39,075 bases of DNA from an uncultured Candidatus Altimarinota bacterium (GTDB lineage Bacteria > Patescibacteriota > Gracilibacteria > BD1-5 > UBA6164), in NCBI GenBank assembly GCA_937931775.1, contig CALHAQ010000010.1, positions 1 to 39,075 on the forward strand. The letters run 5' to 3'. Below are positions 1 to 39,075 of the stretch, one piece after another (position 1 is the first letter of the stretch; each line of letters opens with the position of its first letter). Made by a program: the position numbers and the translations under genes. The notes under the pieces are model-generated. The model saw nothing but the letters and a program-made list of their open reading frames with translations, was not told the DNA's origin and made no database searches.

Positions 1-836
1 TCTATAGATAGTTCTGGCAAGAACCTTCTCTCACCTCTAAGTATAGTTGGAGAGTCGTTTCCATTTATATAGAATAGTGTTTTTTCAAACACCTCATTTT
101 CTAGAGATACATACGGTTGAAAGTTTGTTAAAACTTGATCCATTCCACCAATAAGGAGTAAGAAGGTTTCATACTGTCATTGTAAGTCAGTGAATTCTTG
201 ATGTGGGATTGTGATTTGTGAAAAAGGATTGTCTATATCTTGTAAACTCTCACAGGTATCAAATAATGTAGACATGATGTCTAGAATCCCTTTATTTATA
301 CATATTTGGTTATCAAGAGTCATCCAGTACCATCAAGCCTTTTCGCCTCTTTTATTTTGTCAGACATCTAAGTGTGTGATTTCGTCATACCCATCTCTCC
401 AATTACCTTCTGCATGTCAGTGTTGTTTCTGAAACATATCAACCTTTGTGAGCTGATGTCTTAGGTGATATAAGAAACCATATATATCTGAAGGACTTCA
501 TTTTTCTAAAGACGTAAGAGTAGCTTCTGGAATAGAGGGGTCAATTGTTATATTCTCAGGGTGTGTTATGTGGGGAGGTTTTCATAGTACACTTTTTCCT
601 TTTCTTTTTACTGTACTTATAAGTCATTCATTCACAAGCTGAGGCCATTTCTCTCCAGTAGTCAGAGATCTGTGACTTTCTATAAAGGGAACAGTTTTGT
701 GCGGTTGGTGAGCATCTGTCATGAGTACTGTTCCAGCAGCTCATCTTATAATGGCTACAGTTGGACTTACTACTTCATTATTAGTAAGATTCCCTGGAAT
801 ATGTGTTGTATTACTTGGTATTATTTTTGTGTTCAT
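1..836 (-). CDS. hypothetical protein, C-terminal end cut by the window edge
   Basis: ATG at 836. The frame has no TAA/TAG down to base 3 once in-frame TGAs are read as Gly. N-terminus is MNTKIIPSNTTHIPG. I do not recognise the family. Confidence 0.55.
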
Positions 837-1016
837 AATATGTAAATTAATATATAAAAAGTATTAAATAATACTTGTCAATATTATACTATCAACTTAG
901 GCATATGTCAATATATCAAAACATAAGTAAAAATATAGTATATTTTTGCTTTATATAAGTAATATGTTAGTATGTTGTAAGATTACGACAACATTTTTAA
1001 ATTATTATTAATACAT

Positions 1017-1745
1017 ATGAAAGCAATATTCTCATGACTTGGGATAGAAAAAGCAGATGGAGAAGTATATTTGAAACTCTTAGAGCTCTGAGCTCAGAGT
1101 ATTTCGGTGCTTGCAAAAAATTGTAATACACCCAGATCAAGTATGTATGTCATACTTGAGAGACTGAAACAGTCCTGAATTATAGAAGAGTTTCAAAGAT
1201 ATTCAAGAAAATATGTACGAGCTATAAACCCTGAAGAAATAGAAAATATCCTTTTAAAGAAAAAATTGGAAATTGATCATAGTGTAGAAATTCTTCACAA
1301 GAATATGAAAAGCCTCCAAGATCTTCAATCTGAGTATTCCTTTCGCCCAATTGTCCATTTTTTTGAAGGTGAGGATGAAGTCCGCGCTTTATATACAAAA
1401 GTACTATCTTATAAAGAATTTCAAGCAGTAGTGAATCCCTGACCACTTACAGACATTTTTTCTGATATTACTCAGGCAATAAAAACAAATAAAATACATG
1501 TAAGTGAGTTTATTACAAAATGAAAGAAATCAGATGAATATAATAGATTATATAGTTCTGATTTTCATAAAATAAAGAGCTTACCTGAGAGTTATATCTT
1601 TTCTTCGGATACTATTATCACACATGATTCTGTTTTCATGATTTCATACGATGGCACTCAGGTTTCAGGATTTCAAATCCAAAGTAGGTCTCTTGTAGAA
1701 ACCCAAAAAATCTTATTTGACTCTCTTTGGAATTCTATTTCTTAA
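1017..1745 (+). CDS. TrmB-like winged-helix transcriptional regulator
   Basis: 242-aa ORF with five in-frame TGA (Gly) and a TAA stop. The N-terminal LGIEKADGEVYLKLLELGAQSISVLAKNCNTPRSSMYVILERLKQSGIIEE resembles the TrmB HTH domain. Confidence 0.6.
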
Positions 1746-1755
1746 AATACACACT

Positions 1756-2043
1756 ATGTTTACACAGACGCAGAAAGTTTTAGAGTATCTCCAAACTATT
1801 CCGAGAGGGAAAGTGATGACGTATAGTTCTATAGCAAAGAGATTCGATACGCATCCTCGAGTTATAGCTACCATTATGAGGACGAATAAGCACCCTGAAA
1901 TATATCCCTGTTATAAAGTAGTAAATATAAAAGGAGAATTACTCTGATATAGTGCTGGAGGGCCAACTATCAAGAAAAGATTGTTACAAGCAGATGGTGT
2001 GAAGTTTATATCTGAGAGAGTAAGTTCAGAGTATATTATTTAG
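1756..2043 (+). CDS. MGMT-family protein (alkyltransferase DNA-binding/active-site domain only)
   Basis: 95 aa. IPRGKVMTYSSIAKR...HPRVIATIMRTN...YPCYKVV matches the HTH plus PCHRV-type loop, with Cys kept and His-Arg replaced by Tyr-Lys. Track fragment 1717..1947 continues through a TGA to TAG at 2041. Confidence 0.7.
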
Positions 2044-2142
2044 AAGATGCTTCTTAATAGTAAAATATTATATAATATAAAGATATTTGACATAATATAT
2101 ATATTACTTAAAGTAACTAAAAAATTAATTATATATTGATAT

Positions 2143-2805
2143 ATGAACTTCTTGATACCTCAAATATGTCATTCTCCTGAATGACCATCATGATGAACTA
2201 CTTTTACTATATCAACCACAGCAAAAGAAATTAATGAAGCATTGAGACATGGAGCTAAGTTTTTGAAACCTCTTCATAAAAATAGAAAATTTAGTATTTC
2301 TGGTGATAATATCTATGTACCTACACATGGAAATACATCAAGGAAAATTGATATAGCTACAGATGACGAGCGTTCTGGGGTTACAACAATAAAAAATAGC
2401 CTCACCCGAGAACTTGTCATCCTTATAAAATGAGAAAAAGATGAAATCGTCGCTCAAGACCAAAATGTTAAAAGATTAGCTCGTTTGCTCTTAAGGGTTG
2501 CGTGAAATAGTGATAATAGAAAATTTTTAAACGACTTTGCTCAATGGTTTAGTGATGATATTTCGGCTGTATCATGAATTTGAAAAGACTATGATATAAA
2601 GCGAGAAGGAACAATGAAAACACTTTATGAAAAACTTATTACAAGACTAGAATTTAGTACTGAAGATATAGATGTGATTTTAGCATTTTCTTGGGAATGG
2701 AAATCAACCTTTAGGCATGCAACATATGGTTGTAGAATGTGGATGATTATTACTTGTATTGTAAATATGATAGATTTAGACAAGGAGGATATAGCTTTCA
2801 AATAA
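2143..2805 (+). CDS. hypothetical protein (220 aa)
   Basis: Track fragments 2242..2433 and 2614..2805 share one frame with ATG 2143 and are joined by TGA codons. TAA stop, followed by a terminator. Confidence 0.5.
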
Positions 2806-2835
2806 AAAAGACTTACATATTGTAAGTCTTTTTTA
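2805..2835. terminator. bidirectional intrinsic terminator between convergent genes
   Basis: Perfect hairpin AAAAAAGACTTACA-tat-TGTAAGTCTTTTTT, with an A-run on one side and a T-run on the other. Confidence 0.7.
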
Positions 2836-3649: not shown

Positions 3650-4747
3650 TTGTATAAATATCTACTCACATCGTCTCTTGGACTTGAAGCGCTTGTAAAA
3701 AAAGAAGTTCAAAAACAAGACTATGAGATTAGTGAAGTGCAAGACAAGGCTATCTATTTCTTAGGATGAATCGAAGCTATAGCTCGAATGAACCTCTGGA
3801 GTCGATTTGGAAATGTCCTGTATCTTGTGCTATGAGAAGAAGAAAAAGTCAGAGATTTCGATGCGTATTTTGATATAGTGTATAAACAGGATTGGAAAAA
3901 ATATATCCCTGAGGGATATGAAGTAGTAGTAAATGCTACAGCTATTAAATCAGAACTTTGAGCTGTCTCTACTCTCCAGTGAGTAGCGAAAAAAGCTATT
4001 GTAAAGTCTCTTGTGGGAGAAGGGAAACTCAGAGAGAATACAGAAAAAGGAGTGGTGGAGATTAGAATTCTCATGGAAAACGATACTCTCAGAATACTCC
4101 TAAATACATCAGGAGTGGGACTTCATAGACGAGGATATAGGGAATTAACTGGACAGGCTCCTCTCAAAGAAAATGTTGCTGCAGCTCTCGTAATACTTTC
4201 TGGATGGAAGTTTAGAGAGCCACTATACGACCTGTTTTGTGGATCATGAACTATTGCAATAGAGGCTCTCATGATAGCAAAAAATGTAGCTCCGGGACTC
4301 AAAAGAAAATTCGCATTTCAAAACTGGAATTGGATCCCTAGGGAAGTAATGGAGGACGAAAAAAAGAGAGCTGTAGAGATGCAATTTGCATGAGAATACA
4401 AGATTTATGCAAGTGATATGAGAAAGGAAGTAGTAGAGTCTGCTAAGCGTAGTGCAAGCTTCGCTGGATTTTCATGAGAAATAGAATTTAGTTGTCAGGA
4501 CTACAAGGAAGCTATTCGTAAGGGTATTTCAGGATACATAGTATCTAATCCTCCTTATGGACTGAGACTTGACGAGGATGATTCAGAAGGGATTCATAAA
4601 GGATTAGCAGAGTATTTTACGCAGCCAAATATCCTCTGAGGAATTATCTCATCAGATCTCGAATTTGAGAAACGATCAAAAACGAAATACAAAAAAAGAA
4701 AGCTCTACAATTGATGAGAGCTTTGCTATTTTTATAAAAAGATTTAG
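3650..4747 (+). CDS. THUMP-domain class I SAM-dependent RNA methyltransferase (RlmL/COG0116-like)
   Basis: Motif I DLFCGSGTIAIEA and motif IV IVSNPPYGLRL. The N-terminus LLTSSLGLEALVKKEV is typical of the family. No in-frame ATG is available, so the start is inferred at TTG 3650. Several TGA=Gly. TAG stop at 4745. Confidence 0.75.
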
Positions 4748-4794
4748 GCTGCAAGTTGAGATTTATCAGAATTATCCCCACGATTTACTCAAAG

Positions 4795-5886
4795 TCATTT
4801 GTAAATCCCTGTAATGGTATTAGCAAGTATATTTTTTAGTCCAATTACTTCGATAAAGTCAGGAAGGTCTTGCTTATTAATTGAATCACTTATAAATATT
4901 TTCTTAATTATATCAGGATATTTATCTTTTATCCCTGATAGTCTTTCTATAGCTTTTCCATTTAACATACCATGAGTAATAGCTATTGTGATACTTTTAG
5001 GTTTAAGCAGTATAATTTCTTCGATGAGTTTTTCCATTGTTCCTCAAGTATCAAGCATATCATCATGAATTACTATATCTCTTCATTCTACATCTCCATA
5101 TACATCTATTTGATCAACAGAATTAGGTATAGAGTAGTCTCTATCTTTGATTACATTGATATGTTTTAACTCTAATGTTTTTGCTATAGCAGCTGTAGTT
5201 TTTGCTCATCACTGGTCAGCTCAAGATAGTGTTAAGTTATTCCTTGTAAGTCGTGATCTATTAATTGCTTCTTCAACAAACCATCCAGTGTATAAATTTA
5301 TAAAGTTTGTTCATTTAAATGCACTTTTGGATGCAGGATTATGAATATCTATATTTATACAATAACCGTCTCTTTGAGTCATATCTGCAATCCACTGTCC
5401 AATTATGTCTATTGATGCTGATTGTCGTTTCTCAGGAGTAGTTTTATCTTGCCTTGCATATGGAATACAAGACTGAACAAGATTTACAGTTCGAGCCCCA
5501 TTATCACGAATAGAACCCAAGAGAAGAAGATCGTGTAATAGTTTTTTATCAAGATCATTTTTACGAACAATTCCATCAGTTGATTCATAGTCACCACTTG
5601 GATCAGAAAAAAGATAAACATGTTTCCCTCTGACACTCTCATTGAGAGTTGATATTGATTCTCAACATTCGAAACTCTCATAATCAGGCATGACATCCAG
5701 AGTTACTGTTTCATTTCGAGCAATATCGGAACCATTCTTTCTTGCTAAGTCTAAGATTGCTTGGATTTGAGTCTGGACAGCTCTAGCTAACTTTTCAGTA
5801 TCAGGTGTTGCAACTAAATGAAGTCAAAATGTATTTGTAATTTTTCCTTGTACAAATCTATCGAGTGCAGATGCTCAATTTGACAT
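4795..5886 (-). CDS. prs: ribose-phosphate pyrophosphokinase
   Basis: IPYARQDK, DMLDTGGT (second Gly is TGA at complement 5044..5046) and the C-terminal AITHGML. Track fragments 4795..5037 and 5311..5520 share the frame. Confidence 0.85.
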
Positions 5887-5967: not shown

Positions 5968-6795
5968 TTAATAATATGTCAAATACTTCTTGAATTCTTC
6001 AGAAGAAATCACTATTCATGTATGAGTAATGATCAGCGCTTCTAAATCAGAAATATTCTCTAAGATATCTCTTCATGCGTGCTGACTTGCTGCAAAAAGC
6101 GTTGTAGCAAATGCATCAGCGTAGATTCATAGTGGATGAGAAACAAATACTCAGTTGTGCTCATCAATCGAATTTTTGATATGGTGTCCTGTCTTGAGCT
6201 GCCTCTTGTTTCCTGAGCTTGAGCAGAGAGCTCAAGAATTGAGTGTATATTTTCCGAGAGATTTTTCAGGATCTAGGGGATCTTCTAAGCCTATTTCAAA
6301 GCTTCATTTGCAACGAATATCTCAACCGAAGTTAAGAAGAAATCTATCAAAGTGAGGAGCAAGTATATCAAATACTCTATCGAGCATGTATCACTTTCAG
6401 AGTCCTCAGAATTCTATAGAGATATTATTATGAAGTATTAGCTGGGAATCTGTAATCTCGATGTACCGAGTTCAAATGTTTTCAGGAAGGATAGATTCTG
6501 ATATTCAGTAACCATCATTTTCGAGTAGAGGGAGAAGAGTAATATCGAATACTCATTTACTTATTTCATGAACCTCAAGAGATATTTTCAAAAGATATTT
6601 GAGTTCCTCATCGAGAACAGCCTTTTTAGTATGATTCAGCTCTGAGAGAAAATTACCTGAAATGAAACGAGAGTATTTCTGTTCAAACTTTTCTACTCGC
6701 AAAAAACACTCACGAATAATATCTTCATGAGCGCTTTTGCTATCTATATATATTTCTAGAAGTGTTCAAAGAGCTTCTAAGGAATACTTTTTCAT
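5968..6795 (-). CDS. apbE: FAD:protein FMN transferase (ApbE family)
   Basis: 275 aa with GGLGKGYMLDRV, NFGGDIR, SSSGNKRQ...GHHI and ADAFATTLF, which are typical ApbE motifs. ATG 6795 lies 3 nt after the upstream gene's stop. Confidence 0.8.
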
Positions 6796-7497: not shown

Positions 7498-8565
7498 TTA
7501 GAATTGCTCATTGAGCTTAAGTTTGTTTTGGTAAAACATTCTTGAGCTTGATACTCCAAATCTTTGTGCTGCAATTCTATCGATTCCCATTCAAAATGCA
7601 AAACCAGAATATTTCTTTGAATCTATTCCACATCACTCAAGTACTGTAGGGTGTACCATACCTGAACCAAGCAGTTCCACCCAACCAGTTCAGCTGCACA
7701 TACTGCATTTCTTTCCTTTTGCCTCTCCGGATCAATTACAAATTTGGCAACTTACATCTACTTCCGCGCTTGGCTCAGTAAATGGGAATATACTTGGCCG
7801 GAATCTTAGCTCAGTTTTTTCTCCTAAAAGTTGCTTCATAACGGTATCAAGAGTCCACTTAAGGTCCCCAAATGTTACTCCTTCTCCTACTACGAGTCCT
7901 TCAAGTTGATAGAAATTACAAGTATGCCGAGCATCCTCTTGTTCATAGCGAAATACTCTTCCTGGAACAATAATCTTTATAGGAAGTTCTTGACTCATCA
8001 TAGTTCTTATTTGCACAGGAGATGTATGAGTTCTCAGAAGAAGTCTTTCTCAAATATCTTTATTTTTATTAACATCATCACTAATCCAGAATGTATCCCA
8101 GACATCTCGGGCTGGATGGTTATGAGGAATATTGAGTTTATCAAAGTTATGGAGTTCATCTTCAACCTGAGGACCATCCTCTATTTTGAATCCAAGAGAA
8201 ATAAATATATCTTCGAGCAATTCTGTCGTATGAGATATAGGATGCTTATGACCGAGATTTTCTGATGGATATCCTATCGTTACATCAATTGCTTCATCTG
8301 ATTCTACTTGCGCAAAAGCAGCAAGTTCTATTTCTCATGCTTTATTAGCAAGCTTTATCATGAAATCCTTCTTCATTTCATTCGCTGCAACTCCCACAGT
8401 TTTCTTATCCTCTATAGAGAGGTCTTTTACACCCGCAAGAATAGCCTTGAGTTTTCCTTTTTTTCCTAGATAGTCTGATTCTAACTGCTTGAGCGAAGCC
8501 TCACTATCTATAGTAGCTAGACTTGCTATAAATTCTTCCTGTAATCTTTGTAGTTGTTGTTTCAT
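7498..8565 (-). CDS. pheS: phenylalanine--tRNA ligase alpha subunit
   Basis: FRYEQEDARHTCNFYQLEG, FPFTEPSAEVDV, a CQICNGSGEAKGKKCSMCSGTGW zinc knuckle, and GSGMVHPTVL...GFAFGMGIDRIA. Fragments joined by TGA=Gly. Confidence 0.9.
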
Positions 8566-8850: not shown

Positions 8851-9453
8851 ATGGCTGGATTGCTTGCTCGAAAAATCGAGATGACAAGAGTTATTAAAGG
8901 GGACAAATTTGTTCCTGTAACTCTATTAGAACTCCCAAAAATGCAGGTTGTTGGTTATAAAACAGCTGAAAAAGATGGATATAGCGCTATCATAGTTGGT
9001 ATTGTTGGTAAGGAAGAATCAAAACTTGCGAAAGGAAAGTCAGCGCTTTGCGTGAAGAATTTCTCACAGGTAAGTGAATTCCGAATTGAACAATCTGATG
9101 AAGGAGCAAAAGAAGTTGGTAGTGAGCTTGGGTTTGCTGACCTAGAAGGAGTGAAAACAATTAGCTTCTCAAGTATCTCTAAAGGTAGAGGTTTTGCAGG
9201 AGCAATGAAAAGACATAACTTCCATGGTGGTCCTGGTGGACACGGTTCTAAGTTTCATAGAGCCCTAGGTTCTATCGGTAATAGAAAACCAACAAGAACA
9301 CATAAAGGAAAAAAGATGCACGGACATTACGGTGTTGATAAAAATACTCTCAGAGATGTGCCTCTAGAAATAGTAAATCAGGAAGCTGGTATTATCGGTG
9401 TGAGAGGTCCAGTTCCTGGAGCGAGAAATTCGCTTGTTCATATTTATCTTTAA
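8851..9453 (+). CDS. rplC: 50S ribosomal protein L3
   Basis: Intact ORF with clear L3 sequence: ...GRGFAGAMKRHNFHGGPGGHGS. Confidence 0.95.
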   Translation: MAGLLARKIEMTRVIKGDKFVPVTLLELPKMQVVGYKTAEKDGYSAIIVGIVGKEESKLAKGKSALCVKNFSQVSEFRIEQSDEGAKEVGSELGFADLEGVKTISFSSISKGRGFAGAMKRHNFHGGPGGHGSKFHRALGSIGNRKPTRTHKGKKMHGHYGVDKNTLRDVPLEIVNQEAGIIGVRGPVPGARNSLVHIYL

Positions 9454-9471
9454 TACATTAAAACAGTAACA

Positions 9472-10095
9472 ATGAATACGAAAGTATACGACATGAAATG
9501 AAAAGAGAGCGGAACAGCTACTCTTAACAAAGATGTTTTTGGTGTAGAGGTAAATGAAGGACTGATTCACAGAGCACTCATACTTCAACTAGCAAACGCA
9601 AGAGTTGCAATAGCTCACACAAAAACAAGAGGAGAAAGAAGAGGTTCTACAAGAAAGATCTACAGACAAAAAGGTACCGGTAGAGCAAGAATGGGATCAA
9701 ATAGATCTCCAATTAGAAAAAAAGGTTGAGTAGCCTTCGGTCCAAGGAATGACAGAAACTTTACGCTCACTATGAATAGAAAAGAGAGACAAAAAGCTTT
9801 ATTCTGTGCTCTTTCTTCGAAAGTAGCATCTAAATCTCTTGTAGTTGTAAAAAAACTTGAGATGAAAGAGGCTAAAACAAAAACAATGAATACTATAATG
9901 AATGCTCTGCCACTTGGAAAAACAGCACTTGTAGCGCTTCATGAAAAAAATGAAACAGTAGAGAACTCTATATCTAACCTGAAGAATGCAAAATATGTAC
10001 AAACTTCATACTTAAATATGGCTGACCTACTTAAATTTGAAACATTAGTTCTTACAGAGGACTCACTTAAACAACTAAATGCACTAACTGCATAA
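9472..10095 (+). CDS. rplD: 50S ribosomal protein L4
   Basis: MNTKVYDMKGKESG...[27 protein letters not shown]. ATG 9472 is in frame with track ORF 9772..10095 through two TGA=Gly. Confidence 0.92.
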
Positions 10096-10119
10096 TTACT
10101 TACTTTTTACTATAGGATC

Positions 10120-10416
10120 ATGAGACTGTATAAAATATTACAAAAACCGATTGTAACAGAGAAAACTGCAAATATGCAAATTGGACAACCTAGATATGGA
10201 TTTGTCGTTGCTCCAGATGCTACAAAGATAGATATCAAAGTTGCTATAAAAGAACTCTATGGAGTTGATGTTGTAAAAGTAAATATCTTAAATGCGCGTG
10301 CGAAACATAAGAACGGACGAAAAGTAAAAAAGCAATTAAAGAGAAGGTGTGAAAGAAAAGCATATGTAACACTCAAAAATGCTTCAGATACAATTGATGT
10401 AACAATCGTTAAATAA
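10120..10416 (+). CDS. rplW: 50S ribosomal protein L23
   Basis: Intact ORF. LQKPIVTEKT... is typical of L23. Confidence 0.92.
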   Translation: MRLYKILQKPIVTEKTANMQIGQPRYGFVVAPDATKIDIKVAIKELYGVDVVKVNILNARAKHKNGRKVKKQLKRRCERKAYVTLKNASDTIDVTIVK

Positions 10417-10447
10417 TACCAAAAGATTTATATCTAAAAATTAACCA

Positions 10448-11293
10448 ATGGGACTTAAAAAATTTAAACCAACTACACCCGGAAGAAGAGGAATGACAGG
10501 AATAGACTATAGTGATCTTACTGCAACTACTCCAAACAAAGCTCTTACGACTACTCTCAAGAAGAATGCCGGGAGAAATAATACTGGTAGAATTACTATT
10601 AGACATAAAGGATCAGGTCATGCAAAAAGATATAGACTTGTAGATTTCTTTATGACAGATAAAAAAGATATTCCTGCAAAAATTGAAACAGTAGAATATG
10701 ATCCATATAGATCAGCATTTATTGCTCTGGTATGCTATAGTGATGGTGAGAGAAGATATGTTCTTGCTCATGATGAGGTAAAGGTATGAGATACTATCAT
10801 TACTGCTGAGAAAGCAAAACTTGCTTCTGGAAATAGAATGGAGATTGGAAATATACCAGTTGGTCTCAAGGTTCATAATGTAGAACTTATCGTTGGGCAA
10901 GGTTCTTCATCGGTAAGATCAGCAGGATCGTCAGCACAAGTTTTCTCTCAAGAATGAGATTACACACAGCTGAAATTACCATCTGGAGAAATTAGACTCA
11001 TACATAAAAAATGTTACGCAACACTCGGAAGAGTATCAAATCCTGATCATAACATGGTTACCATTGGTAAAGCTGGTAGATCGAGATGGATGGGTAAAAG
11101 ACCTACTGTAAGAGGTAAGGCTATGAATCCAGTTGATCATCCACATGGTGGTTGAGAAGGAAGAAGTCCTATTGGTATGAAGGCACCGAAAACTCCTTGG
11201 GGTAAGGTTGCTCTCTGAAAGAAGACAAGAAGTAGAAAGAAGACAACTGGAAAATGGATTCTCAAAACGAGAAAAGGGAAACTCATGATGTAA
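10448..11293 (+). CDS. rplB: 50S ribosomal protein L2
   Basis: 281 aa. Conserved HPHGGGEG with the third Gly encoded by TGA at 11153..11155. TAA at 11291. Confidence 0.95.
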
Positions 11294-11323
11294 TTATAAC
11301 TTTTATTTTATAGAAATCGTCTT

Positions 11324-11590
11324 ATGACAAGAAGTTTAAAAAAATGACCATACGTTTACGACAGACTCGTAAAAAAAGTTGAAAAACTTAACGAGACAGG
11401 GAAAAAAACTGTAATAAAGACTTGGTCCCGAACATGTACAGTGATTCCAGAATTTGTAGGACATACATTTGGAGTACATAATGGAAAAACACATACACCA
11501 GTTTTCGTTACTGAAGATATGGTTGGTCATAAATTAGGAGAATTCTCAATGACTCGAACATTTAGAGGACACGGAGGAACAAGAAAATAA
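11324..11590 (+). CDS. rpsS: 30S ribosomal protein S19
   Basis: MTRSLKKGPYV (Gly is TGA) ...[24 protein letters not shown]. Confidence 0.93.
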
Positions 11591-11621
11591 TATTATTACT
11601 TACAATTTATAAACGATTGTC

Positions 11622-11948
11622 ATGAAAGCAAACGCAAAAAATATTCGAATCTCACCAAAGAAACTGAGAGTAATCGCAGAAGTAGTGAGAGGAATGAAGG
11701 CTAATGAAGCTCTTAAATTCCTAAAATTTGCTCCAAAAAAGGGAGCTGATCTTATGTATAAGATTGTTCACAGTGCTGTAAGTAATGCAGTTCATAATGA
11801 CTCTCAAAATGCAGCTGATTTATGTATTGATTCTCTTATTGTTACAAAAGGTATTGTGTATAAGAGAGGAAGGCCAGTATCAAGAGGGAGAATGCATCCG
11901 ATTCTAAAAAGAACTTCGAATGTAAAACTAGAACTCCAAGTCAAGTAA
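11622..11948 (+). CDS. rplV: 50S ribosomal protein L22
   Basis: Intact ORF. NIRISPKKLRVIAEVVRG is typical of L22. Confidence 0.93.
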   Translation: MKANAKNIRISPKKLRVIAEVVRGMKANEALKFLKFAPKKGADLMYKIVHSAVSNAVHNDSQNAADLCIDSLIVTKGIVYKRGRPVSRGRMHPILKRTSNVKLELQVK

Positions 11949-12097
11949 TGACGCAAAGCAAAGCTTTGTTGACATTAGTTATGTAGAGCTTGCTCTGCGA
12001 AGTAATAAAAACAAAAATTAAACTTATAGCAGAGAGTTACCCGGGAAAAAATCCTAGACCTCTATAAAGAATTTTAAACTATAATTATATTTCTCCT

Positions 12098-12748
12098 ATG
12101 TGACATAAAGTTAGTCCAATAGCATTTAGACTCCCATATATCGTAAACTGGAAATCATCTTGGTATGGTGACAGAAAAGCGTATAAAGCTTCTCTTGCTC
12201 ATGATATCAAAGCAAGAGAGATTCTTGATAACCTTCTTACAGGTATTCCAGTAGGTGATATTCTGATTTCAAAAAATGACGAAAGCGTTGTTGTGGATAT
12301 ATTTACTTCAAAAGCCTCTCTTATACTTGGAAAAACAGGTGAACAGGTAGAAGTGATGAAAACGAAACTTCAAAACAAACTTGGAGGAAAATTCATTATA
12401 AATGTTAAAGAAATTAAACAACCTGATACAAATGCTAAAATAGTAGCATTCTCTATCGCAAACCAAATAGAAAAAAGAATGCCATATAAAAGAGCTATTA
12501 AACAAGCACTTCAAAAAGCAATGGAAAAAGGAGCTCTTGGTATCAAGGTAAAAGTTGGTGGAAGACTCAATGGTGCAGAAATAGCAAGAAAAGAAACGTT
12601 TAAAGAAGGAAATATCCCAACACAAACTATTAGATCTAATATTGATTATACAACTATCAGAGCTGAGACAGTGTACGGTACAATAGGACTAAAAGTATGG
12701 ATCTATAAAGGAGATATATACAAAAAGAATAAAAAACTTGACTCTTAA
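12098..12748 (+). CDS. rpsC: 30S ribosomal protein S3
   Basis: Starts ATG TGA CAT AAA GTT = MGHKV (universal MGQK start, with Gly as TGA). In frame with track ORF 12293..12748. Confidence 0.93.
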
Positions 12749-12777
12749 AGAATATTTATATACTAACTTGGCTTACA

Positions 12778-13182
12778 ATGTTACAACCAAAGAAAACCAA
12801 ATATAGAAAGACCATGCGAGGTCGTCTCAAAGGTAGTGCTACCAGAGGGGCAGAGCTTGCGTTTGGTGACTATGCTCTCAAAGCTACGACAAGAGGTTAT
12901 ATAACTTCTCGTCAAATAGAATCAGCGAGAAGAGCTATGGTACGTTACGTGAATAGAGGTGGAAAAATTTGGATAAGAATTTTTCCAGACAAAGCTTTCA
13001 CAGCTAAACCTCTTGAAGTACCGATGGGTTGAGGTAAATGATCTGTGGAAATGTATAGGGCTCCTGTAAAACCTGGTAGAATACTCTTCGAAATGACGTG
13101 AGTAAAACCAGAAGTTGCAAGGGAAGCTTTCACGCTGGCTGCTTATAAGCTCCCAGTAAAGACAAAAATAATAGTTGATTAA
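12778..13182 (+). CDS. rplP: 50S ribosomal protein L16
   Basis: Conserved PMGGGKGS, with TGA at 13030..13032 and 13039..13041. TAA at 13180. Confidence 0.95.
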
Positions 13183-13194
13183 TTTTACAAGCAT

Positions 13195-13407
13195 ATGAAA
13201 GAAATAAAAGACCTAAAGATGAAATCTTCTGATGCTCTAAAAAAATTATCGGCTGATAAGGTAACAGAAGAAATTAAAGGAGCTGAAAAAATGCTCTACA
13301 CACTTAAGATGAAACTCAGTGTGGGTGAAGTAAAACAGACTCACTTAGTAAAAGCCTTGAGGAGATATATAGCATCACTCAAAACACTTGCAAACATTGC
13401 TAAATAA
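13195..13407 (+). CDS. rpmC: 50S ribosomal protein L29
   Basis: Intact 70-aa ORF in the conserved position, helical and Lys-rich. Confidence 0.88.
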
Positions 13408-13430
13408 TTTACCAGAAAATATCATACAAA

Positions 13431-13655
13431 ATGAGAACTATAACAGGAACAGTCGTAAGTAATAAAATGGATAAAACTATTGTAGTATCTGTAGATACAT
13501 ACAAAAGTCACGAAAAATACCATAAAAAGTTTAAGGTAACAAAAAAGTTTTATGCTCACGACGAAGGGAATACATGTAACATCGGAGATGTAGTTACAAT
13601 AAGTGAATCGAGACCTCTTTCAAAGAGTAAGAGATGGACTCTCCAAACAGCATAA
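13431..13655 (+). CDS. rpsQ: 30S ribosomal protein S17
   Basis: [16 protein letters not shown]...KYHKKFKV...YAHDE is typical of S17. Confidence 0.92.
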
Positions 13656-13693
13656 ATATAAATATTTTTAAAGACTAAAGTTATAATTTTATT

Positions 13694-14062
13694 ATGATAC
13701 AAACGGAAACAAGACTCGCAGTAACAGATAACTCTGGAGCAAAAGAAGTTCTTTGTATTAAGGTACTTGGAGGTTCACACCGAAGATATGCATCTATTGG
13801 AGATGTTATCGTATGTAGTGTTAAAAAAGCTTCACCAGACGGTGCTATTAAAAAGAAAAAGGTAGTAAAAGCTGTAGTAGTAAGAACAGCAAAAGAAGTA
13901 AGAAGAGAAGATGGGAGTTATGTACGATTTGATGATAACGCGTGTGTTATTATTGATGATGGAGGACAACCAAGAGGGACTCGTATATTCGGTCCAGTAG
14001 CAAGAGAGCTCAAGGCAAGAGGGCATAATAAAATTGTATCACTTGCTCCAGAAGTTCTATAA
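13694..14062 (+). CDS. rplN: 50S ribosomal protein L14
   Basis: [17 protein letters not shown]... is a canonical L14 start. Confidence 0.95.
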
Positions 14063-14088
14063 ATTATTTACACACTTAGATATAGATT

Positions 14089-14433
14089 ATGAAATTAAGA
14101 TCAGGAGACAGCGTTGTTGTAATAGCTGGTAAAGATAAAGGAAAAAATGGGAAAATTCTCAAAGTATTCCCAATTACTGGAAAAATCCTTATAGAAGGTG
14201 TAAATATTGTTACAAAACATATTAAAAAACAAGGAACAACACCAGGACAAATTATAAAGATGGAGAAAGCAATCGATGCTTCTAACGCTATGCTTGTTTG
14301 TCCGATAACAGAGAAACCAACAAGAATAGGTTATGTGATGGTAGAAGAAAAAGGAATATCTAAAAAGTTTAGATTTTCTAAAAAAGCAGTAAAAGAAAAT
14401 AAAAAAGCAGCTAAAGATTGTATTATTAAATAA
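14089..14433 (+). CDS. rplX: 50S ribosomal protein L24
   Basis: GDSVVVIAGKDKGKNGKILKV is a KOW motif. Confidence 0.92.
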   Translation: MKLRSGDSVVVIAGKDKGKNGKILKVFPITGKILIEGVNIVTKHIKKQGTTPGQIIKMEKAIDASNAMLVCPITEKPTRIGYVMVEEKGISKKFRFSKKAVKENKKAAKDCIIK

Positions 14434-14447
14434 TTATTTCATTTCAA

Positions 14448-14987
14448 ATGACATTAAAAGATACATATAAGAAAGAGATTGCTGGAAAACTCCAGAAAGA
14501 TCTCGGACTCAAAAATACTATGGAAGTTCCAAAACTTGAAAAAGTGGTACTCAATATGGGGATAGGAACATACATACGTAATGGGAACAAGGATTATAGT
14601 GTTCTTCAAGAACATATGGCTCTGATTTCAGGGCAAGCTCCAATAGTGAAGAATGCTAAGAAAGCAATTTCTAACTTCAAACTGAGAGCTGGTATGCCAG
14701 TTGGGCTTACTGTTACTCTTAGGGGTGATAATATGTACAATTTTCTTGAGAAACTCGTAAACATTGTTCTTCCTAGAGTACGTGACTTCCGAGGAATAAG
14801 TGCAAAATCATTTGATAGTGAAGGAAACTATAATTTTGGAATTAAAGAACATACTATCTTTCCAGAAGTTCCTCAAGATGATGTAGTGAAAAACCATGGT
14901 TTACAAATAACAGTAAAAACAACAGCAAAAACTCCAGAGGCTGGAAAAGCGCTTCTTACAGAAATGGGTTTCCCATTTGCAAAGTAA
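14448..14987 (+). CDS. rplE: 50S ribosomal protein L5
   Basis: Intact ORF. ...NFGIKEHTIFPE... is typical of L5. Confidence 0.94.
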   Translation: MTLKDTYKKEIAGKLQKDLGLKNTMEVPKLEKVVLNMGIGTYIRNGNKDYSVLQEHMALISGQAPIVKNAKKAISNFKLRAGMPVGLTVTLRGDNMYNFLEKLVNIVLPRVRDFRGISAKSFDSEGNYNFGIKEHTIFPEVPQDDVVKNHGLQITVKTTAKTPEAGKALLTEMGFPFAK

Positions 14988-15011
14988 TAATACTTCTTTA
15001 ATTAATTACAG

Positions 15012-15236
15012 GTGGCTAGAAAATCAAAGATTGCAAAATCTCAAAAACTGAAAAAGAAATTTCTTCAAGCATTAGCTGATGGAAGAAAACCTCATGAAGC
15101 AACAAAAGTTTTTAACTGTTGTGGTACATGTGGAAGAACCAGAGGATATCTTGGAAAATATGGAATTTGCAGAATCTGTTTCAGAGAAAAAGCAAATGCA
15201 GGTGAACTTCCAGGAGTAAGAAAATCAAGTTGGTAG
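15012..15236 (+). CDS. rpsN: 30S ribosomal protein S14 (zinc-ribbon type)
   Basis: GTG start. [24 protein letters not shown] gives a CxxC...CxxC pattern. Confidence 0.88.
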
Positions 15237-16298: not shown

Positions 16299-16327
16299 TC
16301 TACAATTTAAAATATAAGCATTAGGCT

Positions 16328-24683: not shown

Positions 24684-25934
24684 ATGCAAGAGCCAAATTT
24701 TATTACTCCAGAGCTTATTTCTAAAATTCAAGAGAACTATACTACTCCAGTATATGTATACTCAGAAAAAGAACTTAGAATAAGAGCTAGAGAGTTTATA
24801 GACTTCCCATCTGCATTTGGACATACAGTCAGATATGCAATGAAAGCTAATCCTCAAAAAAATATACTCAAGATATTTCATCAAGAATGACTTTTGATTG
24901 ACGCGAGTAGCGACTTTGAAGCAATCAGGGCCATAAGTGCTGGTATCCCTGCAAAAAATATACAGATATCGAGCCAAGAATTAGGAATTCATATGAAAGC
25001 TCTTGTAGAAAAAGGAGTATTTTTTGTAGCGACATCGCTCTACCAGTTAGAAACTTTTGGAAAAATATTTCCAGGATCATCATGTGGAGTGAGAGTAAAT
25101 CCAGGAGTAAACTCTGGAGGATTTGCTCAGATATCTACAGGAGGAAAAAACTCATCTTTTGGTATTTGGCATACAAAGATAGATGAAATAAAAGCTCTTG
25201 CAGAGAAATATGATATTACGATTTCAAAACTTCATTTTCATATTGGGAGTGAAAACACCCCAGAGAGTTGGGTAGATTCTGCTGGACTTGGGTTTGATAT
25301 ACTTAGAGAAATAGAGAGTATTAAGATTTTTGACATGTGAGGAGGACATAAAATGGCTATTATGCCTTATGAAAAAAGTGCTGATCTCAGAGCAATTTGA
25401 GAAGCCGTTTCTAAGAAATTTAAAGACTTTTACAAAGAAACAGGAAGAAAGATTCATCTGGAAATGGAACCATGAAAGTATCTAGTGATAAATAGTTGCT
25501 CTATGATTGTAGAAATCCAAGATATAGTGGATACCGGTCGCGTCTGATATACTTTTCTCAAGACAAATACAGGAATGAATGATATGCCACGAGTCGCTAT
25601 GTATGGAGTCCAAGAACCACTATTTGTAATGAATAACTCGAGTGAGTATGAGGACTACGTCGTTGTCGGACACTGCTGTGAAAGTGCTGATATACTCACT
25701 TCGAAACTTTATGATCAAGAGGTAATAGAACCAAGAAAGCTTAAAAAAGCATCTCACTGAGATATTCTCGTAGTTGACTGAGTCTGAGCCTATAATAGCG
25801 CAATGAGTGTTAAAAATTATAATAGTTTTCCTGAATCAGGAGAGCTGTTACTTAAAGAAGATGGAACTATCGTAGAAATTCGCTCAAGACAAGAAATAGA
25901 AGATATATGGAGAAATGAGAAAGAAGTAATATAA
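24684..25934 (+). CDS. lysA: PLP-dependent Orn/DAP/Arg decarboxylase family enzyme, most like diaminopimelate decarboxylase
   Basis: 416 aa. VRYAMKAN (PLP Lys), HFHIGS, DMGGGH, EPGKY, GHCCESADIL, GVGAYNSAMS. Four track fragments share one frame and are joined by TGA=Gly. Confidence 0.7.
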
Positions 25935-26552: not shown

Positions 26553-26601
26553 ATGTTTTTAACTATATTATATAAAGTTTAACTTTTTAAATTTGAGATC
26601 G

Positions 26602-27540
26602 ATGAAAAGCCTCCCTTATAAAGATATTCTTCACACAAAACAGTTTGCAAGAGCAGATCTAGAAATGATCTTCGAAACAGCGCGAGATATGGAAAAGATT
26701 ATCTCTTGGGAGTCTCCTGGAAAACTCCTTGATGGAAAGATAATGGCATCACTCTTTTATGAGCCATCGACTCGGACTCGTCTGAGTTTTGAGTCTGCGA
26801 TGAAACGTCTGGGAGGGGAAGTGATTACAGTTTCAGATGGGGAAATGAGTAGTCTCTCGAAGTGAGAATCACTCGAAGATAATGCAATTATCAATGCAAT
26901 GTACTCAGATATACTCGTAATGCGTCATCCTGAATCTGGGAGCGTAGAACAAACAGCAGGAGTAGTAAAAACTCCTGTTATAAATGCTGGAGATGGAGCA
27001 AACCAGCATCCAACGCAAGCGCTTCTAGATGTATATACTATTCTTAAAGAACGAAAGACATTAGATCATTTACATATTGCAATTGTATGAGATTTGAAAT
27101 ATGGTCGTACTACACATTCACTTGTGTTTTTGATGTGATTATTTGAGTGAGTAAGTTTCTCGTTTATTTCACCAGAGGAACTAAAAATGCCACAAAAGGT
27201 AATAGACTTTGTAGAAGAAAAAAAGATACCACATTTAGAGACAGCTGATTATTCAGAAGGAATCAAACAGGCTGATGTACTTTATGTGACGCGTATGCAG
27301 CGAGAAAGATTTACAGATATGAGTGAATACGATAGACTGAAAGATGACTACATCTTGAATCTAAGTATTTTAGAGTGAGCAGAAAAGAGTAATATTACTA
27401 TTATGCATCCACTTCCAAGAGTAAACGAAGTCGCAAAAGAAGTAGATGCTCTTCCAAATGCAGCGTTCTTCCGTCAGGCAGAGAATGGAGTTCCAATTCG
27501 TATGGCACTTCTCTATCTTCTACTTCATGAAAACCGATAA
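26602..27540 (+). CDS. pyrB: aspartate carbamoyltransferase catalytic subunit
   Basis: 312 aa. [33 protein letters not shown]. Start taken at ATG 26602 rather than the track's TTG 26593. Confidence 0.88.
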
Positions 27541-28244: not shown

Positions 28245-29504
28245 TTAATCATTTATTTCTTGTATATCTGCTCCAAGCTCTTGGAGTTTTCCAAGGAGAT
28301 TATCATATCCTCTATTAATCCAGTAAACATTTTCTACTTTTGTTGTTCCTTGAGCAATAAGTCCAGCTATAACCATAGCAGCTCATGATCTGAGATCCCA
28401 ACTGTTTACAGTATTTCAAATCAGGAGAGTAGGACCAGTTATTTTTGCCTCATGGAGGTTTATAATTCTTGATTTTCATCAGAGCCTTTCATATTCTACG
28501 AGCCAGTTGAGTCGTCATTCGTAGAGCACTTCATGTATTCTACTGGTTCAGTTGCACTGAGTCATCAGGACGCTAAACAGCGGCATAAGATCTGTTGGAA
28601 AGCCTGGAAATATATTTGTTTGTATATTTACTGCTGTGAGATTTTTTGCTCTATAAACCCTGAGAGTATCATTTCAGAGATTTTTTGTTTTGACTCAAGC
28701 CTCATGAAATTTGTAAAGAAATGCTCAAAGATCCTTAATTCTAGCCCTATGGATATCAATATATTTCTCACTTGCGAGTGCGGCTATGATAGCAAATGTT
28801 CCTGATTGAAGATAATCAGAAATAACTTCTTGCTGCAAATCTGTTTTTATATTACGAGTTCCATGGATAATAATAGTATGGTCATAGCGAATATCTATTT
28901 GTACTCCTGCTAATCTAAGGAAATCGATAAGGTTAAAAATATGTGGTTCGAATGCAGCAAGTTCTATAGTAGTATGAGCGTTTCTTGTAGCTGCTCACAT
29001 AATAAGATTTGCTGTTGCTGTAACTGCAAAGTAAGCTGTAACAGTAGTGTTTTCAGATGATCAGGCACCTGTAAACTTGAGCATATCTCAACTTTCCTCA
29101 AATCCATATCACATATCTATATACCCATTAATATGCTCATCTATAGGTCGCTTTCATATCTTATCTCCATGTGGAAATGGGAGATCAGCCCTCTCAAAAC
29201 GAGAAAGGAGACCAGCCATAAAATATATCCCCGCTCTAGTTCGTGCAATTTTACTGGTATCTATATTTTCCAGAGAAATATTACTGGTGTCTATACTTAG
29301 TATATCTCAAGAGAAGTCAGTAATGGCACCTAAGCTTTTATAAAAATGAAGAAAATCATGAACATCAAGTATGTCTGGAACATTTGAAAAAGAGACTCTT
29401 CCTGGAATCAGAAGGGCTGCTGACAATAGAGGGAGAGCAGCATTTTTACTTCATCCGATTATTACTTCTCAGCTAAGGGAAGTTGAATTATTAATATGAA
29501 ACAT
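28245..29504 (-). CDS. murA: UDP-N-acetylglucosamine 1-carboxyvinyltransferase
   Basis: 419 aa. GGSKNAALPLL, KIGKRPIDEH, FPGFPTDLMP, DLRSGAAMVIAGL, RGYDNL. Invisible in the standard-code track because of many TGA codons. Confidence 0.88.
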
Positions 29505-31625: not shown

Positions 31626-31656
31626 AAATCTCTCGAGTTATAACTCGAGAGATTTT
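31626..31656. terminator. bidirectional terminator between convergent genes
   Basis: Perfect palindrome AAATCTCTCGAGTT-at-AACTCGAGAGATTT. Confidence 0.65.
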
Positions 31657-32425
31657 ATGTTCTAAAAGTATTTTTTTCTATGAATTCATTTACCTCTTTT
31701 TGTAATTCAGGGGAGATAATCTCATTAGATGAGACAATATTTACATCTTCATCAGCGTCAAAGGCCTCGAGCATTTTTGTAAATTTGAGAGCTTTGTCAA
31801 AATCATCAATTTCCATCTCATTATCTGGAATATAATCAAGCTTTGATTCAAAGATTTCTATATTTTTATCTGAAAAAAATGTTTCTACACTGTGTAAATC
31901 CTCAGGAGCAGTAATAATTTTCGTATATCAAGCTTCTGAGATTATATCCTGCGCATCTGTATCAAACACAAGTTCTTCTATAGAATCATAGCTATGTATG
32001 TTGGGGTCTATAAAAATAACTCACTTATTATGAAACATCCATGATACGGCACCTGCCTCTCCCATATTTCCTCCATATTTTGAAAATATACTTCTGATAT
32101 TTGAAACAGTCCTATTTTTATTGTCAGTGAGAGTAGAGATAAGGAAAGCTACTCCTCCAGGAGCATATCCTTCGTATACTATTTCTGATATTTGAGCAGC
32201 ATCCTTGTCCTCTCATGTCCCTTTTTTGATAGCTCTATCAATCGTATCGCTTGGAACTCCATCTTTTTTTGCTTTTACAATAAGTCCTGCGAGAGCAGGG
32301 TTATCATCTGGATTTCATCATTTTTGAGCAGCTATGGCAATAAGCTTTGCATGCATAGAAAATATCTTTCACTTTACTGCATTTACTGCATTTTTTCTCG
32401 CTTGTACTACCGGACCTCTTCACAT
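31655..32425 (-). CDS. yebC: YebC/PmpR family DNA-binding transcriptional regulator
   Basis: 256 aa. [13 protein letters not shown] (ATG TGA start)...[31 protein letters not shown]...[16 protein letters not shown]. Confidence 0.85.
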
Positions 32426-35361: not shown

Positions 35362-35757
35362 ATGAAAAAAATACTAGGAATAGCTCTTATCGTTTCACTT
35401 GCAGCTCTTGCTTCATGTGGAGTAAAAGATGCTGCTAACTCAGTTGTTGAAACAGCTGGAGACGCAGTAGAAGCTACAGTAGATGTTGCTGGAGACGCGG
35501 CTGAAGGTGTTGTTGATACTGCTACTGATGCAGTAGAGGCTACAGTAGATGTTGCTGGAAATGCAGCTGAAGGTGTTGTTGATACTGCTACTGATGCAGT
35601 AGAAATTGCAGAAGATGCAGTAGCTGAAACTGGAGAAGCTATGATGGATAAATGAGAAGAAGTTATGGAAAAAGCAGACGATACTGCTGAAGCTATGATG
35701 GATAAAGGGGAAGAGAAAATGATGGATGATAGCGCTACTGGTGCGATGCAAAAATAA
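35362..35757 (+). CDS. acidic repeat lipoprotein (131 aa)
   Basis: MKKILGIALIVSLAALASC lipobox. Ala/Asp/Val/Glu repeats. Continues past TGA 35653..35655 to TAA 35755. Confidence 0.7.
35461..35604 (+). repeat. 66-bp in-frame tandem repeat, two full copies plus a partial third
   Basis: 35461..35526 and 35527..35592 are near-identical (D-AVEATVDVAG-AAEGVVDTAT). The third copy begins GATGCAGTAGAA. Confidence 0.85.
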
Positions 35758-36241: not shown

Positions 36242-37462
36242 ATGCTACAACTCTCAAATTTTCCTATAAATACACTCAAATCAACTCCTAATGGGAGTGA
36301 TAATACTTCAACATGATTACTCCTTCAGTGATGATATATCCGTCAAGAAATGGCAGGAGTATATAGTTTCCTTCCTATTGGGCTCAGAGTACTGAGAAAT
36401 ATAGAAAACATTGTGCGTGAAGAAATGGATAATGCCTGATATCATGAAGTGCTTATGAGCGTGATAACAGATAAATCATCCTGGGATATTACAGGGAGAT
36501 GGAATATGGATGTTATGTTTCATGTACCAGCTCACGATGATAAGCAGTACTCTATCAATCCTACCAATGAAGAAACAGTTGTTCCTATGATGAAAGAGTT
36601 TCTCCAGTCATATAAAGACTATCCTACATGCGTATATCATATTCAGAAAAAATTTCGTAATGAGAAGAGAGCAAAATCAGGATTATTGCGAGGAAGAGAA
36701 TTTCTCATGAAAGATGCTTATAGTTTTCATATAGACGATGAGGAGTTTTCAGATTTTTATGAAAGTGTAAAGCAGGTATATGTAAAAATATTCGAAAGAT
36801 TATGAGTAGGATCAGATACTTATGAAACAGTAGCTGATGGTGGGGACTTCACTGATAAGTATTCTCATGAGTTTCAAACAGTCCTCCCTATTGGAGAAGA
36901 TGATATATACATCTGCAGCTGATGCAGGCTTGGACATAATAAAGAGGTAGTACAGGGAGATTTTGTCTGTACTCGCTGTGACTCAAAAGAGTTTGATCTC
37001 AAGCAAGCTTCTGAAGTAGGAAATATATTTCCACTAGAAACAAAATTCTCAAAACCATTTGAAGTAGAATACACAGATAAAGACAACAAAATGGTGGATC
37101 GAGTCCTTATGGGTTGTTATGGTATAGGAATATCTCGTCTCATGTGAGTCATCGCAGAATACTCTGCCACTGAGAAATGAATTCTCTGGCCAGAGAGTAT
37201 TGCTCCAGCAAGTCACTATATCATCGTCATAGGAGAAGATAATATAGAAAATGCTTTCGAACTTGCAGGAAAGTTAGAGTCTGAATGAAAGACAGTAATC
37301 CTCGATGATAGGATGGGACGTAAAGATTGATTTGGACAAAAAGCAGCTGATTGTGAGCTCTGGGGGATACCAAATCGTATCGTCATATCTCCAAAGACGC
37401 TCGAGCAAGGAGGATACGAACTCCTTCAGAGAGGACAAGAACCAACTATAGAAAAACTATAA
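36242..37462 (+). CDS. proS: proline--tRNA ligase, short bacterial-type form without the INS editing domain
   Basis: 406 aa. [59 protein letters not shown]...CTRC element (36914..36979) sits where INS would be. Confidence 0.88.
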
Positions 37463-37487
37463 ATTGACAATTAGCAATTTATAAACA

Positions 37488-37521
37488 AAATAAAGGCATA
37501 AATTTATTCCTTTATTTTTTT
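37488..37521 (+). terminator. terminator-like hairpin after proS
   Basis: AAATAAAGG-12 nt-CCTTTATTT followed by TTTT. The stem is AU-rich, so it is weaker. Confidence 0.4.
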
Positions 37522-37524
37522 GTG

Positions 37525-39036
37525 ATGACTTTAGGTACATTCAATATTGATGAAATTAAGGAGGCTAGTAGGACGCTTCTTTGAAAATGAAAAACGAAAC
37601 TCATTCATGCTCTTGATTGATTTCCTGATTATGTAGTAATGGAAAATAAAGACGATATTACAGCAGGAGATGGGAAAAAACATGATAAACTTACATGAAA
37701 AGCAGCAGCTTCAACGTCTATTACATCAAGTACATTTCAATATTTAGAAAATCAGTGAATAGCCACTCACTTTATAGAACAACTCAGTGATACTGAAATC
37801 CTTGCTCAGAAATGTGATATGATACCACTTGAATGTATATTTCGTCATGTATCAACAGGCTCACACTATAAAAGAGAAAAATTTCAAAAATGAGATGAAG
37901 CTCTAGCGGATGGAACAATGTTAGAAGAACCTCTTATGGAATTTTTCTATAAAAATGATGTAGTATTAGAGTCAGGAGAAATTATTTCTGACCCGATGAT
38001 GCAGTGTGACTCAAATGGGATTCCTCAAATTGAAGATGGTAAATTTATCCTTCTTCACCCAAATACTTGAGAGATCTTACATTATATAGATGTAGAAAAT
38101 CCAAGTACTTGAGAATTTTTGTCTAATGATGAGTTACAACAAGAACAAAAGCAAATTCTTACTCATGCAAGAGAAATTAAAAAGCAGACTACAAATGTAT
38201 GAAACAAACTCAAAGAATTGTATAAAAAAGCAGATCTTGAATTATTCGATGGAAAAATAGAGTTTGGTATAAATAGTAAATGAGAACTTGTAGTTGCAGA
38301 TGTAATTGATGGAGATAGTTGCAGACTGAGAAAACCACTGATAGTAGAATCAGAGAAATGAACGTACCATACATGAAAATCAATAAATAGAGACATAGTG
38401 TTAGATTATTTAGCAGAAAAATATACATGACCTGTAATTAATTTTTTTAATTATGTTGGACTTATACTTAGTAAGGATGAGTCAGATACAGATGAATTGA
38501 TATCATATATTGAATGAGAGTTTAAAAGAAATCCTAGAGCTTACTATGAGGTATCTCCAAAATTCTTTGAGAAAACCCCTCTTTGAGATTTTTCAGATTT
38601 TCAGGAATTTACCAAAGCTGAGATAAATACTTTTAGTAAAATGAAAAGTATTACACGATGACTCTTGCAAGATATTGCAAGAAAAACATCCCAAGAATTT
38701 GAAGATAAGTATTATAAAGGAGAACAACTATTTGAAAGAAATGATAATGATAGAATTGTTTTTAAGAGAGCTAGAGATTTACTTCATACTTTAAACTCTG
38801 CTATTGAAACAAAAGTACAGATATTACAGAGTAGTAATCTGAAAGACGTAAAAAGAGTAGTAGAATGAGAATGACTTGATAAACAGTGATATAGAGATTG
38901 AGAAAATCCAGAAGAAACAGTGGATAAATATAATAAGTTAGCAAATATACTAAAAGAACTACTGAGTAATGCATGAATCATAAGTCAGGTAGATCAAGGA
39001 GCGAAAAGGACGCGAGATATACTAAATGACAAATAA
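37525..39036 (+). CDS. purC: SAICAR synthetase (PurC)-like protein with an internal insertion and a C-terminal extension of about 200 aa
   Basis: 503 aa. GKGKTKLIH, NKDDITAGDGKKHD, GIATHFI, KCDMIPLECIFRHVSTGS, PLMEFFYKND, LELFDGKIEFG, VVADVIDGDSCRL. Track ORF 38665..38868 is in the same frame. Confidence 0.75.
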
Positions 39037-39037
39037 A

Positions 39038-39068
39038 AAAAACTCTCCCAGCCTGGGAGAGTTTTTTA
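39038..39068 (+). terminator. intrinsic terminator
   Basis: AACTCTCCCA-gcc-TGGGAGAGTT followed by TTTT. Confidence 0.7.
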
Positions 39069-39075
39069 ACTCATG

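Follow-up and report, generated by a model that had tools for sequence, protein, structure and literature searches.

Reading of UGA, a stop codon, as glycine has been listed as NCBI translation table 25 (Candidate Division SR1 and Gracilibacteria code) since 2013; it is assigned to the GTDB class JAEDAM01 with the orders BD1-5 and Absconditabacterales, and tools such as Codetta and gTranslate handle it. Under table 4 the same codon specifies Trp, which is found in Mycoplasmatales, Entomoplasmatales and insect endosymbionts such as Hodgkinia, Zinderia, Nasuia and Stammera. Here we analyse a stretch of 39,075 nt (contig CALHAQ010000010.1; "the window" denotes this stretch at its full length) from an uncultured bacterium of the Gracilibacteria (BD1-5), which belong to the candidate phyla radiation (CPR), and conclude with a probability of roughly 0.96 that it uses table 25, i.e. 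that UGA is an ordinary Gly codon, UAA and UAG the sole terminators, and UGG the codon for Trp, as an earlier note on this DNA had proposed. The use of UGA for Gly in Gracilibacteria was catalogued more than ten years ago and the lineage is already labelled as a user of this code, so that the window is an ordinary example that adds little new biology.

In Gracilibacteria and Absconditabacteria the change of UGA to Gly goes along with a tRNA-Gly(UCA) and with the loss of release factor 2 (RF2) (PMC8629427; preprint 10.64898/2026.05.24.727570). The tRNA(UCA) carries the glycine identity elements G1:C72, C2:G71, G3:C70 and U73 (PMC8629427), and peptide-level (proteomic) data support UGA = Gly in a BD1-5 bacterium (PMC4032931). 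By analogy with this literature on the clade, a dedicated tRNA-Gly with the anticodon UCA would read UGA in the organism studied here, and RF2 would have been lost, so that nothing would compete for the codon, with release factor 1 terminating translation at UAA and UAG. AT-biased mutation, for which GGA to TGA is a single step, would then spread the captured codon, and codon selection in highly expressed genes would temper this spread. The window has in common with the described table 25 systems the reading of UGA as Gly, the restriction of stops to UAA and UAG, UGG for Trp, a low GC content and a gene content of the CPR type. Moreover, its nearest relatives are labelled Gracilibacteria and show the same recoding, and no tested feature differs.

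The window has a GC content of 33.8% and is a cellular, chromosomal contig; a phage origin was rejected because it encodes 20 ribosomal proteins (19 in one cluster, plus L25), SecY and three aminoacyl-tRNA synthetases. With all three stop codons in force, 27.7% of the window lies in open reading frames (ORFs) of at least 100 amino acids (aa) and 4.1% in ORFs of at least 200 aa, the longest one having 336 aa. If TGA is read as sense, these values rise to 90.1% and 68.6%, respectively, and 15 ORFs of at least 300 aa appear. The gain is specific to TGA, as read-through of TAA or TAG raises the coverage by ORFs of at least 200 aa to only 11.4% or 4.6%. This bears out the view that the ORF track of the window is fragmented owing to TGA being a sense codon.

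Fifty-one ORFs were curated, yielding 50 credible genes, which were translated with TGA as X for the Pfam comparison. They contain 246 in-frame TGA codons, corresponding to 205 per 10,000 codons, which are distributed over 39 of the 50 genes. As these codons, located between positions 177 and 38974, fall into every 4-kb bin, the recoding spans the whole window. The 11 genes devoid of TGA are all short (70-200 aa) and ten of them encode ribosomal proteins. Pfam domains run continuously and at full length across the TGA codons, e.g. EPSP_synthase (residues 3-417 of 417) across the 17 TGA of murA (28245..29504, minus strand; 419 aa), which also matches E. coli murA over residues 2-417 (E = 1.5e-48), and ApbE (residues 12-266 of 266) across the 14 TGA of the apbE/flavin transferase gene (5968..6795, minus strand; 275 aa). 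The matches to Mg_chelatase, tRNA-synt_2d (PheS), OTCace, ABC_tran, YebC, HisS, ProS and SAICAR synthetase extend across TGA codons in a similar manner. Termination tells the same story: 42 of the 50 genes end in TAA, eight in TAG and none in TGA, just as had been claimed earlier, and neither TAA nor TAG occurs inside a gene. With TGA at 20% of all stops, 50 genes would lack it at their ends with a probability of 1.4e-5. This lack of TGA stops is also the sole, indirect, support from the window for the predicted loss of RF2.

In order to assign an amino acid to TGA, species genomes of GTDB were scanned with an L14 anchor, which gave seven relatives with in-frame TGA and some 73 reference genomes without it (Actinomycetota, Bacteroidota, Bacillota, Proteobacteria, Saccharibacteria and E. 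coli). Each codon of the window from L3 to SecY was then compared with the residues that the standard-code genomes have at this position, taken as a weighted profile (3012 columns). The mean Gly content per column is 0.62 for TGA (n = 19) and thus close to that for GGA (0.64), GGG (0.74) and GGT (0.78). In none of these 19 columns, which stem from the ribosomal cluster and SecY, is Trp a partner, and the log-likelihood for TGA is +20.9 with Gly and -34.8 with the runner-up, Ala. This inference from codons to alignment columns, put forward earlier as a check of the recoding, hence comes out in favour of Gly. Apart from TGA, all codons with adequate counts are assigned their canonical meaning.

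For genes outside the ribosomal cluster 13 regions of E. coli K-12 were fetched and 12 orthologue pairs aligned. At the 109 aligned TGA sites the E. coli partner is Gly in 55 cases, Cys in one and Trp in none, the Gly count being far above the background of 7.9% (binomial P = 1.2e-31). In a first comparison Gly stood opposite 50% of TGA and about 62% of GGN codons, a gap that is biased in favour of GGN as only TGA was masked in that run. When all Gly codons, TGA and TGG were masked alike, the two classes became indistinguishable, with Gly opposite 53/97 TGA (55%) and 104/192 GGN codons (54%; Fisher p = 1.0). In all respects that could be measured, TGA thus acts like a codon for Gly.

The individual sites are in line with this. 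At the ten positions singled out in the earlier note, nine codons are indeed TGA (the one at 5044-5046 on the minus strand) and the tenth, at 35707-35709, reads GGG; the surrounding peptide is in each case the one described there. The claim that TGA falls on universally conserved glycines also holds for most of these sites. In the reference columns Gly reaches 1.00 at 11153 in L2 (10448-11293; four TGA), at 12101 in S3 and at 13039 in L16, and 0.86 at 18764 in secY (17756..19024, plus strand; 3 TGA). In the MsbA-like ABC exporter (19109..20854, plus strand; 12 TGA) the TGA at 20546 stands for the second glycine of the signature LSGGQ, with Gly in the E. coli MsbA motif LSGGQRQR; in the prs-like gene for ribose-phosphate pyrophosphokinase (4744..5886, minus strand; 11 TGA) the TGA at 5044-5046 is opposite the first Gly of E. 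coli DDMIDTGGT, and in hisS (23237..24529, plus strand; 12 TGA) that at 24134 is opposite a Gly of E. coli AGGRYDGL. The claim fails for the other L16 site, 13030-13032 (PMG-X-GK), which lies in a Ser/Lys/Ala column of the standard-code references (S 0.53, K 0.40) and faces Lys in E. coli.

Three observations have to be weighed with the assignment of UGA to Gly and with its proposed mechanism. First, ARAGORN detected no tRNA gene, tRNA-Gly(UCA) included, in the window or in the loci of the seven relatives. Second, of the 19 TGA columns from the ribosomal cluster and SecY, seven are not dominated by Gly. Third, about 45% of the TGA sites in the E. coli alignments are opposite residues other than Gly, although GGN codons behave identically.

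At the DNA level TGA and GGN replace each other, both within the window and between the window and its relatives. A segment of a lipoprotein gene is duplicated internally (35635..35719, plus strand), and the two copies, GAAGCTATGATGGATAAA-TGA-GAAGA at 35635-35660 and GAAGCTATGATGGATAAA-GGG-GAAGA at 35689-35714, share identical flanks of 18 nt but carry TGA (35653-35655) in one case and GGG (35707-35709) in the other, so that this duplication does serve as the internal control as which it had been put forward. In the seven relatives all in-frame stops are TGA, save one TAA or TAG per locus at the end of the alignment. About 80% of these TGA are opposite GGN in the window and, conversely, TGA codons of the window are opposite TGA or GGN in the relatives. 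Taken one by one, the seven relatives likewise read TGA as Gly (log-likelihoods of up to +200). Moreover, L2 proteins that are about 89% identical to that of the window contain a genuine Gly at three of its four TGA sites.

Of the seven closest genomes found in the L14-anchored scan, four are metagenome-assembled genomes (MAGs) under the name Candidatus Gracilibacteria, while two bear the label Candidatus Peribacteria and one only "bacterium", and the mean identity of their ribosomal proteins to those of the window ranges from 57 to 70%. An L2 protein about 90% identical to that of the window is MCD5375066.1 (NCBI, Candidatus Gracilibacteria bacterium), and a search for contigs encoding the L5 of the window, which is free of TGA, returned only its own contig and a 1.3-kb Logan contig (ERR9287618). 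The two MAGs labelled "uncultured Candidatus Peribacteria bacterium", L004 (CAYSEP010000006.1) and L012 (CAZCCA010000022.1), also use TGA for Gly, at 7 and 86 sites of the ribosomal cluster, respectively. Since both group with the recoded relatives from Gracilibacteria, their Peribacteria label looks unreliable.

As the earlier note had held, TGG still encodes Trp: its columns have a mean Trp content of 0.59 (n = 16; log-likelihood +47.6), and Trp is its commonest partner in E. coli (10/32). A related question is whether the organism carries a second reassignment, as Codetta predicts CGA and CGG to encode Trp in Absconditabacteria and CGG to do so in some Gracilibacteria (PMC8629427). The window resembles the extended code of Absconditabacteria (SR1) in its UGA = Gly, its low GC content, a preponderance of AGA among the Arg codons (273 per 10,000) and the great rarity of CGG, but it differs in that CGA is common and read as Arg and in that CGG is found on invariant arginines. 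CGA occurs 49 times per 10,000 codons, its columns contain Arg at 0.64 (15 columns) and Arg is the partner at 17/28 sites in E. coli. CGG is represented by only five codons (4.2 per 10,000); in this small sample two are located on invariant Arg residues, i.e. CGG 7798-7800 in the motif RFRPSxFPFT of pheS (7498..8565, minus strand; 6 TGA) and CGG 26773-26775, the first Arg of STRTR in a pyrB-like carbamoyltransferase gene (26593..27540, plus strand; 5 TGA). As CGA is Arg and two CGG codons sit on invariant arginines, the second reassignment (CGA/CGG = Trp) is absent from this organism, a result that speaks for the BD1-5 (Gracilibacteria) branch of the clade. The placement in the Gracilibacteria/Absconditabacteria (SR1) part of the CPR, which had been deduced from the recoding, is supported by the recoding and the labels of the relatives, whereas the reading of CGA and CGG as Arg argues against the SR1 clade itself.

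Four relatives of low GC content (L012, L023, L024 and L027) have no CGA or CGG at all in their ribosomal cluster and a single CGG in about 7,400 codons of flanking ORFs. Their Arg codons are almost wholly AGA, whereas the window retains CGA as Arg. This loss of CGA and CGG is the codon-disappearance state discussed for the reassignment of these codons in the clade.

The use of TGA depends on both the type of gene and the GC content. In the window (34% GC) TGA accounts for 6% of the Gly codons of ribosomal protein genes (17/266) and for 34% of those of other genes (229/669; odds ratio 0.13, p = 2.6e-21). In the relatives, whose ribosomal counts include SecY, the corresponding shares are 2-5% and 0-19% at a GC content of 40-44% (L003, L004 and L005), and 42-47% and 64-82% at 25-26% (L012, L023, L024 and L027). 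Hence, TGA use climbs steeply across the relatives as the GC content drops, up to the point where, in the closest relatives (25-26% GC), TGA dominates among the Gly codons. This pattern fits a spread of the captured codon that is driven by AT pressure and moderated by selection in highly expressed genes.

The same avoidance might, however, be taken as a sign of ambiguous or dual decoding on top of table 25, with TGA being read in part as stop or Trp, or with tRNA-Gly(UCA) wobbling onto UGG. Such ambiguity would make TGA costly and would thereby explain its scarcity in ribosomal protein genes of the window, a bias that has the same direction in six of the seven relatives, and U34 wobble could indeed give rise to UGA/UGG ambiguity in this clade (PMC8629427). 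We nevertheless regard dual decoding as improbable. Glycines that are invariant and essential for function are encoded by TGA no less often than by GGN, TGA directly follows the start codon in S3 and in the yebC family gene (31655..32425, minus strand; 7 TGA), and in the low-GC relatives it makes up 42-47% of the Gly codons even of ribosomal protein genes. Moreover, ordinary selection for codons of abundant tRNAs accounts for the bias without any ambiguity.

Very improbable is a reading according to table 4, in which TGA would encode Trp as in Mycoplasmatales and several insect endosymbionts. Table 4 systems share with the window the capture of the same stop codon in a reduced genome of low GC content and would lead to the same ORF boundaries, TGA clearly being sense, and the public record seems to speak for it: an exact look-up in a public protein collection returned MurA, L2 and SecY of the window at full length with Trp at every TGA, whereas neither Gly versions nor table 11 fragments of these three proteins were present. 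However, Trp occurs at none of the 109 sites aligned with E. coli and in none of the 19 columns, while TGG columns do contain Trp, the relatives exchange TGA for GGN and not for TGG, and Trp would replace the invariant glycines of HPHGG-G-EG in L2, LSG-G in the ABC exporter and DT-G-GT in Prs. With UGA = Gly, as preferred here, the collection entries contain false Trp residues, i.e. 17 in MurA, four in L2 and three in SecY.

A standard code with damaged genes, in which TGA would mark pseudogene lesions, assembly or sequencing errors, or selenocysteine sites, would account for the field of short ORFs seen under table 11, but its probability is close to nil, as TGA alone interrupts the 50 genes, frame and homology carry on across every TGA, and the 246 sites lie in essential genes, with the same pattern in seven independent assemblies of relatives. 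Selenocysteine in particular was rejected because TGA is far too common for it and because its partners are Gly, with Cys at only one of the 109 sites.

The ribosomal protein cluster comprises 19 genes on the plus strand (8851..17679) in the order L3-L4-L23-L2-S19-L22-S3-L16-L29-S17-L14-L24-L5-S14-S8-L6-L18-S5-L15; for 16 of its TGA sites there are reference columns, and 11 of these are dominated by Gly. In the stretch from 8566 to 19024 the cluster begins at L3 without S10 upstream, where pheS is located on the other strand, has no L30 gene between those for S5 and L15, and ends at SecY without the block L36, S13, S11, S4, rpoA and L17, the ABC exporter following instead. S10, L30 and the genes of the L36/S13/S11/S4/rpoA/L17 block were also not found in the loci of the seven relatives (about 10 kb around L14); adk, map and infA were not directly searched. 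An Rfam scan of the 39-kb window returned no tRNA, rRNA, riboswitch or other family, and no ribosomal protein leader upstream of the L3 cluster.

Further genes supported by both Pfam and E. coli alignment are a comM/yifB gene for a Mg-chelatase-like ATPase (20976..22511, plus strand; 11 TGA), a lysA-like gene for a PLP (pyridoxal phosphate)-dependent decarboxylase (24684..25934, plus strand; 8 TGA) and proS (36242..37462, plus strand; 10 TGA). At 406 aa, ProS is shorter than its E. coli counterpart (572 aa), to which it aligns as two blocks, as would be expected if the inserted editing domain were missing. A free-standing protein with a YbaK/tRNA_edit domain is encoded at 27446-28015, some 8 kb upstream of proS. 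The last gene, purC (37525..39036, plus strand; 21 TGA), encodes 503 aa if translation begins at 37525, the likely start, as compared to about 237 aa in E. coli; the longest ORF would start at 37327 and overlap proS by 136 nt, and this is probably not the true start. SAICAR_synt matches PurC in two separate stretches, suggesting a large insertion or extension.

The recoded reading also discloses four long ORFs at 29660-31570, 33709-35229, 3-836 and 2047-2805, which encode 636, 506, 278 and 252 aa with 13, 19, 8 and 8 TGA, respectively. None of them has a Pfam match; they are lineage-specific proteins that exist as ORFs only if TGA is sense.

The choice of the code has direct consequences for annotation. 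Heuristics that rely on coding density, such as those of the CheckM/GTDB-Tk type, have table 11 and table 4 as their only options (preprint 10.64898/2026.05.24.727570). Under table 11, about 70% of the coding sequence of the contig is lost or fragmented. The longest pieces free of TGA then amount to 89 of 419 aa for murA, 121 of 406 for proS, 68 of 569 for purC and 70 of 275 for apbE. If table 4 is used as a fallback, the ORFs are recovered, but about 2% of the residues, i.e. 246 glycines, many of them catalytic, are turned into Trp. Both outcomes are seen in the databases. In a cluster of near-identical L2 genes the TGA positions appear as Gly (MCD5375066.1), as Trp (table 4 calls) or as the site of truncation (113 and 235 aa, mostly JGI/IMG). 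The expectation that standard pipelines would report the window as short fragments is therefore correct for table 11 and for the truncated L2 entries of JGI/IMG, but not for the collection that holds MurA, L2 and SecY in full-length Trp versions. The error is passed on to homology searches, structure predictions and family profiles that draw on such Trp entries.

Given the TGA shares and the GC content of the window, we speculate, with considerable reservation, that the organism might stand partway along a natural series of codon capture at UGA. If the steep, non-linear rise of TGA with falling GC content and its avoidance in ribosomal protein genes reflected limits in the supply or the fidelity of tRNA-Gly(UCA), and not mutation bias alone, the clade would be a tractable system in which to study how a former stop codon spreads through a proteome.

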